Positions 9,001 through 12,000 of a stretch of 12,469 nucleotides of DNA are shown here, piece after piece. The DNA comes from a virus (Duplodnaviria; Heunggongvirae; Uroviricota; Caudoviricetes), in the IMG/VR virus record IMGVR_UViG_2703718791_000009; one strand, given 5' to 3'. Within the stretch, counting starts at the first letter, position 1, and each line of letters begins with the position of its first letter. Made by a program: the position numbers.

Positions 9001-12000
9001 GCAGCGCTGAGTGCCGGCGGTTTTTCTGCCACCACGATGCTGTTTTCACTGGGTGCCAGCATGATACTGGGTGGTGTGGCACAGATGCTGGCCCCGAAGC
9101 CAAAAACACCGGAATACAGGGCAACGGATAACGGTAAACAGAACACGTACTTTTCGTCGCTGGATAACATGATTGCCCAGGGGAACCCGATGCCGGTGCC
9201 TTACGGTGAAATGCTGGTTGGCTCCCGGCGAATCTCCCAGGACATCAGCACCCGTGATGAAGGCGGGGGCGGAAAGGTCGTGGTTATCGGGCGGCAGAGG
9301 TAAAAAGAATAAAAAAATCCCGCAGAGTTGCGGGGACAGACAAAGATTAACGTTAAGGAGTTATTTTTGTTTCTGGTGCTCGGGCAAAAAAACATTAACG
9401 CAGAGAAATTATTAGCACCACAGTCAGTTTATGAAAATGTGAAGATATTCAGAAGTTTTATTCAGTCATGATACAGGCATCCTCCGGGATGCCTGTTGTT
9501 TTTGTGCGTAACAGTTATCACAGTAAAGGGTGAGACAATGGGCAAAGGTGGCGGCAAGGCGCACACGCCGGTAGAGGCAAAGGACAATCTTAAGTCCACG
9601 CAGATGATGAGCGTGATTGACGCCATTGGTGAAGGGCCGATTGAAGGTCCGGTGAAGGGGTTGCAGAGTATCCTGGTGAACAAAACCCCGCTGACGGACA
9701 CGGACGGTAATCCTGTGATACACGGTGTGACCGCGGTCTGGCGCGCCGGGGAGCAGGAGCAGACACCACCTGAAGGCTTTGAGTCCTCCGGGGCGGAAAC
9801 CGCACTGGGCGTGGAAGTGACGAAGGCAAAGCCGGTGACGCGCACCATTACATCCGCGAACATTGACCGCCTGCGGGTCACCTTCGGGGTGCAGTCACTG
9901 GTGCAGACCACGTCAAAGGGTGACCGAAACCCGACATCCGTCCGCCTGCTGATTCAGTTACAGCGTAACGGTAACTGGGTGACGGAAAAGGATGTCACCA
10001 TTAACGGCAAGACCACCTCGCAGTTTCTGGCGTCGGTGATTCTGGATAATCTGCCTGAGCGGCCCTTTAACATCCGGATGGTCCGGGAGACAGCGGACAG
10101 CACCTCGGACCAGCTGCAGAATAAGACGCTCTGGTCGTCATACACCGAAATCATCGATGTGAAACAGTGCTACCCGAACACGGCGATTGTGGGGCTGCAG
10201 GTGGATGCGGAGCAGTTTGGCGGTCAGCAGATGACGGTGAACTACCATATCCGCGGTCGCATCATCCAGGTACCGTCAAACTATGACCCGGAAAAACGCA
10301 CGTACAGCGGCATCTGGGACGGCAGCCTGAAACCGGCATACAGCAACAACCCTGCCTGGTGCCTGTGGGACATGCTGACTCACCCGCGCTACGGCATGGG
10401 AAAACGTCTGGGGGCGGCAGACGTGGACAAATGGGCGCTGTATGCCATCGGGCAGTACTGTGACCAGCGTGTCCCGGATGGCTTCGGGGGCACAGAGCCG
10501 CGGATGACCTTTAATGCGTACCTGTCACAACAGCGTAAGGTATGGGATGTGCTCAGTGATTTCTGCTCGGCGATGCGCTGTATGCCGGTATGGAACGGGC
10601 AGACGCTGACGTTTGTGCAGGACCGTCCGTCAGATGTGGTGTGGCCCTACACAAACAGTGATGTGGTGGCTGACAATGAAGGTGTGGGATTCCGCTACAG
10701 TTTCAGCGCCCTGAAGGACCGTCATACTGCGGTGGAGGTCAGTTACGTCGACCCGCAGAACGGCTGGCAGACCTCCACGGAACTGGTGGAAGACCCGGAA
10801 GCCATACTGCGCTACGGGCGCAACCTGCTGAAGATGGATGCGTTCGGCTGCACCAGTCGCGGTCAGGCCCACCGTGCCGGGCTGTGGGTGATAAAGACCG
10901 GACTGCTGGAAACGCAGACGGTGGATTTCACGCTCGGGTCACAGGGGCTGCGTCACACACCCGGTGACATTATTGAAATCTGTGATAACGACTATGCCGG
11001 GACCATGACCGGCGGACGTGTCCTGTCCATCGATGCCGCCAGCCGCACCCTGACGCTGGACCGTGAGGTGACACTGCCGGAGACCGGTGCCGCCACGGTG
11101 AACCTGATTAACGGCAGCGGTAAGCCGGTGAGTGTGGACATCACCGCACACCCCGCGCCGGACCGGATACAGGTCAGCACCCTGCCTGATGGTGTGGAGA
11201 CATACGGTGTATGGGGACTATCCCTGCCGTCACTGCGCCGTCGCCTGTTCCGCTGTGTCTCCGTCCGGGAAAACACGGACGGCACCTTTGCCATCACGGC
11301 GGTGCAGCACGTACCGGAAAAAGAAGCCATCGTGGATAACGGTGCCCGCTTTGAGCCGCAGTCAGGCACCCTGAACAGCGTCATCCCTCCGGCAGTGCAG
11401 CACCTGACGGTGGAGGTGAGCGCAGCTGACGGCCAGTATCTGGCGCAGGCGAAATGGGACACGCCGCGGGTGGTGAAGGGCGTGCGCTTCAGTCTGCGCC
11501 TGACCAGTGGAAGCGGTGAGGACAGCCGTCTGGTGACCACCGCCATCACCGCGGATACAGAGCACCGTTTCAGCGGTCTGCCGCCGGGGGAATACACCCT
11601 GACGGTCAGGGCGATTAACAGTTATGGCCAGCAGGGGGAACCGGCCACCACCACGTTCAGGATTAATGCACCTGCGGTACCCGCCACGATTGAGCTGACA
11701 CCGGGCTATTTTCAGATAACAGCGGTCCCGCGTCTTGCGGTGTATGACCCGACGGTACAGTTTGAGTTCTGGTTTTCGGAGACAAAAATCGCAGACACAT
11801 CTCAGGTGGAAACCTCTGCCCGTTATCTGGGGACCGGCAGTCAGTGGAGTGTATCCGGCCCGCACATTAAGCCCGGGAAGGATTTCTGGTTTTACGTGCG
11901 CAGCGTCAACCTGGTGGGGAAATCTGCTTTTGTGGAAGCCAGTGGCCGGGCCAGCAATGATGCAGAAGGGTATCTGGGGCTGTTTCGGGAAAAAATAGGA

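Follow-up and report, generated by a model that had tools for sequence, protein, structure and literature searches.

A predicted Hfq-binding small RNA gene of the EcOnc22/23/24 family between the tail genes I and J of a lambdoid phage genome

Escherichia coli O157:H7 and its pathogenic relatives harbour many lambdoid prophages, and sRNAs encoded there, such as AgvB, AsxR, StxS, Esr41 and Pas, rewire core metabolism and virulence. The anti-sRNAs AgvB and AsxR, together with STnc100/EcOnc27 and the Pas sRNAs of the PR′ moron site, are Hfq-binding RNAs that occupy DNA-tolerant sites in lambdoid prophages of EHEC and EPEC. AgvB, AsxR and the PR′ sRNAs, which lie downstream of Q/PR′, occur as several alleles per genome and combine a conserved terminator with a variable 5′ part that carries ARN motifs. 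Such motifs were described at Hfq sites and in AgvB and AsxR by Tree et al. Another group from the same study comprises EcOnc22 in Sp15 (Stx1), EcOnc23 in Sp14 and EcOnc24 in Sp11 (Tree et al., 2014, Mol Cell, Table S2), which were detected as Hfq-CRAC peaks opposite in strand to the tail genes; a Northern blot of EcOnc22 showed an ~85-nt band that was destabilised in a Δhfq strain (Tree et al., 2014). An EcOnc22-type locus is labelled 'asxR2' in Table EV2 of Waters et al. (2017), and our search for literature on AsxR2 and on sRNAs associated with tail genes yielded nothing further. The EcOnc22 family has been listed since 2014 and never described; new here are the anatomy of its genes (promoter, start, end and conserved core), their location between tail genes I and J, their sequence classes and their tandem arrays.

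The other elements with which this locus must be compared are the morons. Classical morons are likewise extra DNA of lower GC content that brings a promoter and a factor-independent terminator of its own (Juhala et al., 2000; Cumby et al., 2012), and morons are in general transcribed independently of the late operon, as the element described here appears to be. The sodC-F1/F2 genes of the Sakai prophages Sp4 and Sp10 lie at the same I-J junction and, like the sRNA unit, in reverse orientation. The presence of sodC there in relatives makes the I-J junction a true moron site.

The locus lies in a 12,469-nucleotide stretch of a Caudoviricetes genome (IMG/VR record IMGVR_UViG_2703718791_000009), referred to below as the window. 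A sequence-only reading of this DNA had pointed to an AT-rich gap between I and J, and the gap indeed spans 234 bp (9304-9537) with a GC content of 0.385, versus 0.605 in I and 0.588 in J; in lambda, where I ends at 15444 and J begins at 15505, the corresponding gap is only 60 bp, also in line with that reading. The Sakai homologues of gene I are annotated as phage tail assembly protein, and the J DNA is 90-97% identical to Sakai genes annotated as phage host specificity protein. A terminator scan of 8600-10200 returned six sites, compared with 1.7 +/- 1.2 in shuffled sequences, and no conserved ORF was found on either strand of the island. The island separates two genes that are neighbours in lambda; it is additional DNA compared with that phage, of foreign composition, and forms a self-contained transcription unit. 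As described below, it is likely to be a compact gene for an Hfq-binding sRNA of ~90 nt, predicted on the strand opposite the tail genes. The features on which this reading is built are as follows.

8623..9303, plus strand: tail assembly gene I, a 226-aa ORF with 69% identity to lambda I; left boundary of the island.
9311..9334, minus strand: intrinsic terminator of the sRNA, with a stem at 9334-9319 (CCCGCA/UGCGGG, loop ACUC), an A, and U7 at 9317-9311.
9311..9401, minus strand: predicted ~91-nt sRNA of the EcOnc22/23/24 family, with its 5′ end at G9401 and its 3′ end in the U-run at 9317-9311.
9343..9360, minus strand: conserved, mostly unpaired core CUCCUUAACGUUAAUCUU, which holds the anti-Shine-Dalgarno-like CUCCUU and UUAAUCUU; proposed pairing region.
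9361..9374, minus strand: A-rich tract, read directly from the sequence; A-rich tracts are likewise placed in all variant classes.
9367..9471, plus strand: TTG mini-ORF of 34 codons; present, judged non-functional.
9408..9413, minus strand (read from 9413 to 9408): -10 hexamer AATAAT of the sRNA promoter, from the promoter scan.
9431..9437, minus strand: weak -35-like region (TTTTCA / TTCATA), from the promoter scan, with 9/12 matches overall.
9438..9453, no strand assigned: conserved dyad TGTGA-AGATAT-TCAGA upstream of the sRNA promoter; CRP-like, with 9 of 10 half-site bases.
9473..9506, plus strand: intrinsic terminator-like hairpin, with a stem at 9473-9496 and a U-rich tail that reaches 9506; it lies immediately upstream of the ribosome-binding site of J.
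9538..12469, plus strand: tail tip and host-specificity gene J, with an N-terminus 72% identical to that of lambda J; right boundary of the island, running off the window.

The promoter, body and terminator of the minus-strand unit all fit between 9453 and 9311, and the hairpin with its U7 run adjoins the I stop codon, which is 8 nt away. By its sequence, the predicted RNA belongs with the EcOnc22/23/24 sRNAs of E. coli O157:H7, of which it is a divergent copy. A covariance model (R1), which was built from 13 other variants, including EcOnc22, and from which window-type sequences were excluded, matched 9401-9311 of the minus strand over the full model length (73.7 bits, E 2.6e-12), with no second match in the window and none in lambda. 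The three Sakai sRNAs and the window copy have in common the I-J position, the strand opposite the tail genes, a predicted length of 91 nt, the dyad, the -10 element, a 5′ GCGUUA or GCAUUA, a U-tract, an A-rich tract, the core motif CUCC(U/A)UAACGUUAAUCUU, and a CCCGCAG/CUGCGGG terminator followed by U7. Relative to EcOnc22, 71 of 91 residues are identical (69% of alignment columns), and so is the -10 hexamer AATAAT. The window copy differs from EcOnc22 by a 12-nt insertion in its 5′ half, by a terminator loop of 4 nt rather than 11 nt, and by a U in the core (CUCCUUAAC) where EcOnc22 has an A (CUCCAUAAC).

The published peaks could be assigned to these genes only after their coordinates, which refer to an earlier version of the Sakai record, had been calibrated (offset +135 to +140) by Rfam hits to AgvB, AsxR and Esr41 and by CLASH read sequences. 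After calibration, the EcOnc22, EcOnc23 and EcOnc24 peaks fall inside the I-J gaps of Sp15, Sp14 and Sp11, and the Hfq peak covers positions ~15-75 of the predicted 91-nt RNA; uncorrected coordinates had put the EcOnc22 peak on the plus-strand terminator hairpin, and the calibration moved it to the minus-strand RNA. Chimeric reads from RNase E-CLASH (Waters et al., 2017) contain GCCTGAAAAATAACTCCATAACGTTAATCTTCA, which is minus-strand sequence. These chimeras link the core region of EcOnc22/23 with the yjbJ mRNA, which is the only repeated partner; with one or two reads for each interaction, the support from CLASH is thin. The sequence-only reading had regarded a spacer shared by most relatives and free of transcripts as incompatible with its proposal; the spacer is indeed present in most relatives, but it is not silent, because the homologous spacers contain Hfq-CRAC peaks and CLASH reads.

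For the Sakai alleles, both expression and Hfq binding have been documented, whereas the window copy is known from its sequence. A window-type copy was not found in the tail regions of Sakai Sp4, Sp10, Sp11, Sp12, Sp14 and Sp15 or in the Sp6 segment retrieved, and therefore no published peak is tied to the window allele. The Sakai paralogues of the 341-bp type (Sp12) and the sodC-linked copies (Sp4 and Sp10) are absent from the published peak list, and not every copy of the family need be expressed. Two further listed RNAs were considered as members of the I-J group and set aside: EcOnc36 maps to Sp5, in which the retrieved region shows no I-J junction and holds a single large hypothetical-protein gene, and EcOnc54 lies in Sp6 beside an antirepressor gene inserted between L and K.

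The better-known prophage sRNAs do not account for the RNA. According to the papers on AgvB and the Pas sRNAs, both lie in the Q/PR′ region rather than at I-J, and they are unrelated in sequence. The Rfam models of AgvB (RF02702) and AsxR (RF02703) found nothing in the window, while the same models found their own genes in Sakai control loci. The predicted length also differs, at ~91 nt in the window versus 51-60 nt for RNAs of the AgvB/AsxR type. An Rfam scan of the whole window gave no match at the gathering score, and a permissive scan of the minus strand of the island gave only noise; the only similarity on the plus strand, to STnc100 (RF02076), reached 22.9 bits against a cut-off of 47 and was driven by the terminator. 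The EcOnc22 family is itself absent from Rfam.

The sequence-only reading saw no evident promoter in the island, which does not hold for the minus strand, where a -10 hexamer lies at 9413 to 9408. Among 71 unique units, this hexamer is TATAAT in 30, AATAAT in 20, TATCAT in 8 and CATAAT in 4 (together 62/71), and it stands at a fixed position, 24 nt from the dyad and 7 nt before GCGUUA; CGUUA follows the hexamer by 7 nt in every one of the units. The -35-like region is poorly conserved among variants, which would fit an activator-dependent promoter. In all variants the half-sites of the upstream dyad (TGTGA-N6-TCAGA) are invariant while the 6-nt spacer varies, a conservation pattern consistent with recognition by a dimeric DNA-binding protein. 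By itself, the one match in the window lacks significance (0.40 expected by chance); within 1.56 Mb of fetched loci, 186 of 189 exact matches lie inside the units. The centre of the dyad is 32.5 bp upstream of the -10 element, at about -44.5, compared with -41.5 for the class II position of CRP, and one half-site deviates from the CRP consensus TGTGA-N6-TCACA. From these sequence features, cAMP-CRP may be offered as a best guess for the binding factor, with little confidence.

At the other end of the unit, the minus-oriented hairpin and U-run that had been noticed at 9311-9335 form a terminator with a folding energy of -10.9 kcal/mol (z -3.8). Its stem, CCCGCAG/CUGCGGG, is constant among variants with a loop that ranges from 4 to ~26 nt, and paralogous units use another stem, CUCCCGU/ACGGGAG; no covariation was found in the stem within the main class. 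The RNA body is the most variable part of the unit, and no conserved internal structure was found 5′ of the terminator. The core is conserved among variants and paralogues alike, and is predicted to be unpaired in eight representatives (mean probability 0.49-1.00).

The units behave as modules of the I-J junction. Of the matches to the hairpin pattern examined in viral contigs, 78/82 directly follow an I homologue. Some relatives carry two to four tandem sRNA units at I-J, and others carry sodC there; in sodC-carrying gaps an RNA body is kept without a promoter. Tandem arrays repeat terminator, body, -10 element and dyad as one module, so that every array unit has its own copy of the dyad, and paralogous units that are only ~60-70% identical keep this architecture. 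The family comprises at least ten sequence classes. A window-type copy is present in 633 of 5,426 E. coli RefSeq genomes, and no annotation was found under the matches listed from these genomes. One genome with the window allele is that of O157:H7 PA20 (NZ_CP017669, near position 3115137). Sibling sRNA families such as Qrr1-5 and OmrA/B likewise consist of paralogues that have a common promoter architecture and core and differ in the rest; here, in contrast, the siblings are arranged in head-to-tail arrays inside a phage tail operon.

A plus-strand moron, as the sequence-only reading had suggested with its 34-codon ORF, would encode a peptide of 34-47 aa, start at a TTG preceded by AAGGAG and be closed by the plus-strand terminator. 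The AAGGAG and the 34-codon TTG ORF at 9367-9471 are present as reported, with AAGGAG 6 nt upstream of the TTG and the end of the ORF 2 nt before the strong terminator. The frame is also open from a TTG at 9328, which gives 47 aa, the Sp15-type allele has an ATG-started ORF of 39 codons in the same frame, and a hypothetical protein is annotated here in a few phage records. Moreover, the minus-strand RNA covers the Shine-Dalgarno sequence and the first 35 nt of the ORF, an arrangement that would allow a variant of the peptide model in which the locus is a type I toxin-antitoxin pair and the minus-strand RNA is an antisense antitoxin over the ribosome-binding site of the peptide. Antisense overlap is found here as in type I systems, but these also have a conserved small hydrophobic toxin ORF, whereas the mini-ORF is unconserved and its product is not consistently hydrophobic. 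In the 44 unique gaps, most variants lack a start codon, the commonest classes have an open stretch of only 19 codons in this frame, several variants contain in-frame stops, and the lengths of the indels between classes are not divisible by three (8 nt, for example). The variable sites in the conserved block of the mini-ORF are second codon positions, the scan found no plus-strand promoter, and array units are repeated without the plus-strand terminator. A peptide-encoding moron, with or without the antitoxin variant, is therefore very unlikely. The AAGGAG at 9355-9360 is the complement of the conserved CUCCUU of the sRNA, and the mini-ORF is very probably a spurious by-product of the sRNA sequence; annotators should be aware that an ORF led by a Shine-Dalgarno sequence in a phage intergenic island can mirror an sRNA on the opposite strand.

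The plus-strand hairpin, for its part, is as strong as had been claimed for a terminator at 9474-9506 (-18.9 kcal/mol, z -6.1). It is paired in 98% of cells and shows one compensatory change (U-A<->C-G), as do 48 of 500 shuffles. Because it occurs once per gap, even in gaps with two to four units, and because lambda has an equivalent (at the corresponding I-J place, lambda and L166 each have another hairpin, followed by UUUUGU), it is a separate element of the I-J backbone and stands outside the sRNA unit. What survives of the moron layout suggested by the sequence-only reading is thus a self-contained foreign unit at a moron site, and not its anatomy of plus-strand mini-ORF and terminator, since the unit lies on the opposite strand; a small RNA, which was one of the options listed there, is favoured by the minus-strand unit, the R1 match and the EcOnc homologues.

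It could be argued that the island has decayed to a functionless remnant, or is a neutral scar left by recombination, and that its conserved pieces reflect only recent common descent and linkage to J. The loci were gathered by means of near-identical J N-termini, which inflates similarity near J, and the make-up of the junction is strongly mosaic, since deletions, cassette swaps and insertions of IS elements occur in it. Such a functionless scar is nevertheless highly improbable: the conserved blocks are bounded on both sides by more variable sequence, the -10 element is kept or improved to TATAAT in independent classes, the half-sites stay invariant while their spacer changes, paralogues at ~60-70% identity keep the same architecture, and homologues are expressed and Hfq-bound. 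More attention is due to the view that the RNA acts mainly in cis, either by pairing with the I-J spacer of the late tail transcript or by transcriptional collision, and so changes how I and J are processed or expressed. RNase III might, for example, cleave a duplex of 91 bp; the outcome might be to damp leaky tail-gene expression in lysogens or to tune the dosage of J after induction. The RNA is perfectly complementary to that spacer, and the unit is found essentially only at I-J (78 of 82 after an I homologue), always antisense to the tail operon. A CLASH chimera that derives from the tail-sense strand of the same hairpin shows that sense transcripts of the spacer exist and meet RNase E, and predicted pairing of the window RNA with the J start region, at -21.7 kcal/mol, ranks among the strongest 5% of the background, for which the 5th percentile is -19.3. 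This pairing, however, is not retained in the Sp15 type (-15.4 kcal/mol), and the RNA lies outside the coding sequences and ribosome-binding sites of both I and J, with the ribosome-binding site of J more than 120 nt away and beyond a strong hairpin. A variable body and the accumulation of paralogues in arrays fit diversification towards trans targets better than a fixed cis target, and the Hfq dependence of the homologues and their chimeras with chromosomal mRNAs point to action in trans. A mainly cis-acting role is consequently unlikely.

The reading that we prefer is that the island is probably an 'sRNA moron' between I and J, an independent unit that is read against the tail operon. It resembles classical morons in its position between genes adjacent in lambda, in its atypical base composition (0.385 vs 0.605/0.588 GC) and in having its own promoter and factor-independent terminator, here on the minus strand, as indicated by computation and by the expression of homologues in uninduced cells. 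It differs from them in that its cargo would be a non-coding RNA of ~90 nt in place of a host-beneficial protein gene, and in that the units are tandemly multiplied in relatives. A sigma-70 promoter (-10 AATAAT, weak -35 and CRP-like dyad) would start transcription at about G9401, and the ~91-nt RNA would end at the hairpin and U7 at 9334-9311. EcOnc22/23/24 are made in uninduced lysogens, are bound and stabilised by Hfq, and are present on RNase E. Promoter, RNA ends and Hfq properties were shown for these homologues, and we therefore infer them by homology for the window copy. The 3′ hairpin with its U-tail together with the (ARN)n tract suggests binding to both the proximal and the distal face of Hfq in a class II-like manner; in the class II sRNAs ChiX, MgrR and CyaR, an ARN tract and a U-tailed terminator likewise suggest use of the two faces. 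The RNA probably works in trans, with its accessible core CUCCUUAACGUUAAUCUU as the base-pairing region; given the resemblance of this core to an anti-Shine-Dalgarno sequence, the most likely mode would be pairing at, or close to, ribosome-binding sites. The dyad suggests control by a dimeric transcription factor, possibly cAMP-CRP. The plus-strand terminator is probably an older feature of the lambdoid I-J backbone, and Q-modified late transcription would be expected to pass through it.

A wider generalization is possible, although we put it forward tentatively and consider it more doubtful than not. The I-J junction of EHEC-type lambdoid prophages may be a dedicated and expandable cassette site that holds one to four head-to-tail sibling Hfq sRNA units with diversified bodies, or sodC as an alternative. 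The units may have in common an anti-Shine-Dalgarno-like core and a factor-dependent promoter that includes a CRP-like dyad, which would couple control of host translation to a shared signal such as carbon status; the promoterless bodies in sodC gaps might then give rise to a 3′UTR-derived sRNA. The family is now directly testable by promoter fusions, seed mutants and target capture. As a side observation, a search of genome contigs with the J N-terminus yielded only four close loci, of which two belong to assemblies labelled Streptomyces and Clostridiales.

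The window carries a lambdoid tail operon on its plus strand, and the AT-rich island of 234 bp that a sequence-only reading had placed between genes I and J is borne out by its GC content of 0.385, against 0.605 in I and 0.588 in J. The I-J gap of lambda, put there at about 60 bp, measures 60 bp. Both hairpins, the AAGGAG and the TTG open reading frame (mini-ORF) noticed in the island are present, and a consensus scan revealed a sigma-70-like promoter where none had seemed evident:

8623-9303, plus strand: gene I, 69% identical to lambda I
9304-9537: the island
9334-9319, minus strand: stem of the hairpin by I, followed by U7 (fold -10.9 kcal/mol, z -3.8)
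9355-9360, plus strand: AAGGAG
9367-9471, plus strand: the mini-ORF
9413-9408, minus strand: -10 hexamer AATAAT of the promoter
9473-9496, plus strand: stem of the hairpin by J, followed by UGUUUUUGUG (fold -18.9 kcal/mol, z -6.1)
9538 onward, plus strand: gene J, with an N-terminus 72% identical to lambda J

Because the minus-strand promoter is followed by a terminator of the same orientation, an RNA of about 90 nt is predicted on the strand opposite the tail genes. Of the moron layout proposed earlier, the site and the idea of an autonomous unit stand, but the strand and the cargo do not.

Orphan Hfq-CRAC peaks of Escherichia coli O157:H7 Sakai have been tabulated (Tree et al., 2014, Table S2; PMC4104026), and among them EcOnc22, EcOnc23 and EcOnc24, from prophages Sp15, Sp14 and Sp11, were flagged as homologues; EcOnc22 gave a Northern band of ~85 nt that was destabilised in Δhfq (Tree et al., 2014). 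Their coordinates were published on an older Sakai genome record, not on NC_002695.2, and Rfam matches to AgvB, AsxR and Esr41 give a shift of about +135 to +146 between the two; without correction, several peaks are assigned to the wrong feature of NC_002695.2. Chimeric reads with GCCTGAAAAATAACTCCATAACGTTAATCTTCA were assigned to EcOnc22/23/24 (Waters et al., 2017, Table EV7; PMC5286369), and this sequence, which is that of the strand opposite the tail genes, sets the shift at +135 to +137. In the Sakai record, the peaks of all three prophages fall within the I-J gaps on the plus strand, opposite the minus-strand tail genes. The Sp15 gap (240 bp) is co-linear with the island of the window, and the corrected EcOnc22 peak lies over residues ~15-75 of an RNA predicted to be 91 nt long, which starts 7 nt past an AATAAT -10 hexamer and ends at a hairpin-U7 adjoining the stop codon of I.

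A covariance model of the family (R1), for which 13 variants including EcOnc22 were used but neither the window type nor anything closely related to it, matched the 12.5-kb window once, on the minus strand at 9401-9311, over the full model length (73.7 bits, E 2.6e-12), and had no match in the lambda I-J region. EcOnc22 and the window RNA are identical at 71 of 91 residues, but the latter has a 12-nt insertion in its 5′ half and a much shorter terminator loop. The window copy is a new, divergent allele of the EcOnc22/23/24 family. This family, first detected experimentally in 2014 (Tree et al., 2014), is absent from Rfam and is known in the literature solely from supplementary tables and a single table of a review; the informal label 'asxR2' occurs in one CLASH table, and no paper text using it was found. 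Its gene anatomy, fixed I-J location, sequence classes and tandem arrays are added here.

Hundreds of EHEC chromosomes carry the island at 99.6% identity, and 633 of the 5,426 complete E. coli genomes match it; among the matches listed from E. coli RefSeq genomes, no annotation lies beneath it. Versions that have diverged further were found in 147 phage records, almost all of Stx-converting phages.

Comparison loci were collected through the J N-terminus (80 viral-contig loci), through the left-hairpin pattern (120 more) and from seven Sakai prophage regions, and yielded 186 sRNA gene units, 71 of them unique. Every unit has the same order on the minus strand: a dyad TCTGA-N6-TCACA, 24 nt, the -10 hexamer, 7 nt and (G)CGUUA. 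Among the unique units, 30 have TATAAT as the hexamer, 20 AATAAT, eight TATCAT and four CATAAT; the -35 region is weak and differs between units. The half-sites of the dyad are constant, its 6-nt spacer takes at least eight forms, and 186 of the 189 exact matches in 1.56 Mb of fetched DNA fall within units, a pattern consistent with recognition by a dimeric protein. The dyad agrees with the CRP core TGTGA-N6-TCACA at nine of ten positions. Control of the sRNA promoter by CRP is nevertheless proposed as a hypothesis only, because the dyad is centred at about -44.5, not -41.5, and its lone match in the window (chance expectation 0.40) is not significant.

The RNA bodies fall into at least 10 classes of 91-104 nt. 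Conserved structure beyond the terminator was not found in the family; GUUAAUCUU is frequently present, and the elements common to all classes are:

5′ GCGUUA
a U-tract
an A-rich (ARN)n tract
a CUCC(U/C/A)U motif, mostly inside CUCCUUAA
a terminator with U7-8

In folds of eight representatives the CUCCU motif is largely unpaired (probability 0.49-1.00). To judge by its U-tailed terminator and ARN tract, the RNA may engage Hfq at both the proximal and the distal face, and the accessible conserved core CUCCUUAACGUUAAUCUU is likely to be the pairing region; because it resembles an anti-Shine-Dalgarno sequence, occlusion of ribosome-binding sites is suggested. As shown for its homologues, the window RNA would be made in uninduced lysogens at about 85-91 nt, bound and stabilised by Hfq, and present on RNase E. 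The sole experimental hints of targets are one or two CLASH reads in which the core is joined to yjbJ (ECs5028) and ECs5349.

Other readings of the locus are less probable. The RNA could act in cis, antisense to the late I-J transcript, which we consider unlikely, and there is very little probability that the locus is a non-functional remnant. A peptide-coding or toxin-antitoxin locus is equally hard to credit. The mini-ORF, which had been put forward as a gene led by a Shine-Dalgarno sequence, was traced through 44 unique gaps in the frame set by its conserved 3′ block, and in most variants it has no start codon, is interrupted or changes frame. The commonest gap classes leave an open stretch of just 19 codons without a usable start codon, other classes have in-frame stops, indels between classes are not multiples of three, and the few variable sites of the conserved block are at second codon positions. 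The AAGGAG varies to AGGGAG, AGAGAA, AAGGAA and ATGGAG, as expected under selection on the complementary CUCCUU of the RNA. From these comparisons, we conclude that the mini-ORF is very probably not a gene.

A lambda-like gap of 60 bp was found in none of the collected relatives, whose I-J gaps measure 234-260, ~341, ~410, ~851 or ~930 bp. Some carry IS insertions at the junction. Others are as follows:

851-bp gaps with a reverse-oriented Cu,Zn superoxide dismutase gene (sodC): L096 38485-39335 (Sp10), L098 39488-40338 (Sp4), L010 and 14 other viral contigs
tandem arrays of two, three or four head-to-tail units: L154 322-1084, L143 4418-4980, L148 158-704, L103 9819-10080; also L118, L160 and L182
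341-bp variant: L097 13393-13733 (Sakai Sp12), L061, L067, L052 and others
window-type island fused to truncated L, with the 3′ part of L and all of K and I deleted and J intact: L001 3610-4234 (O157:H7 PA20) and viral contigs L026, L028, L045, L062 and L066

The sodC gene is annotated in Sp4 and Sp10 as sodC_1 or copper/zinc superoxide dismutase. It takes the place of both sRNA promoter and plus-strand terminator; the RNA body (68 bits to R1) is kept downstream with its own terminator, where it might be made as a sodC 3′UTR-derived RNA. Each paralogous unit of the arrays has its own dyad, -10 and terminator, and one paralogue class has another terminator stem, CUCCCGU/ACGGGAG, plus ACCUCCUUA, which we take to be identical to the 3′ end of 16S rRNA. 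The 341-bp variant matches the window type exactly through GAATTTTTAT and then continues with a bidirectional hairpin, AAAACCCCGGUAUC-UGCU-GAUACCGGGGUUU, ~120 nt of unrelated sequence and J; the window and Sp12 are 95.7% identical from position 4 to exactly the switch point at 9461.

The plus-strand hairpin by J is well conserved and shows one compensatory pair (U-A to C-G); the support from this pair is modest, since 48 of 500 shuffles equal it. This terminator looks like an old lambdoid I-J feature separate from the sRNA unit, since it is single copy and adjoins J in tandem arrays, is swapped for the different bidirectional hairpin in the 341-bp variant, and has counterparts in lambda and L166. 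The lambda gap (L093 746-805, lambda 15445-15504) is little more than one hairpin, AACCGCC-UGCG-GGCGGUU, followed by UUUUGUCAUUU (UUUGUCAUUU) right before the J ribosome-binding site; the hairpin of L166, near its second J start, is a third and different version. The stem sequences of lambda, L166 and the window are unrelated and stand at the same place before J; a conserved structural role for a hairpin at this position is suggested. In lambda, polymerase modified by Q runs through intrinsic terminators, so the plus-strand terminator could plausibly halt polymerase that lacks the modification ahead of J, or else stabilise the 3′ end of an mRNA. In Sp15-type right flanks (L002, L058, L040, L094), two to four tandem copies of the heptanucleotide CAGACAT, a repeat not found in the window, lie between this terminator and the J ribosome-binding site, just upstream of the latter.

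The L166 locus carries another cargo at the same junction, an AT-rich insertion of ~1 kb with an unknown ORF of ~170 aa (MKKPMTDIKFIFHTRSP...), which lies where the first ~140 nt of J are duplicated, between the short duplicate and the full gene. Two contigs with J genes 96-97% identical (L090, L091) are assigned to a Streptomyces flavalbus assembly and a Clostridiales MAG, apparently through contamination with E. coli phage or through mis-binning. With corrected coordinates, the EcOnc54 Hfq peak falls at L099 2808-3329 (Sakai Sp6, between ECs_1556 and ECs_1557), in a gap adjoining an antirepressor (ant) gene inserted between L and K; here a second insertion site within a tail operon has a transcript bound by Hfq.
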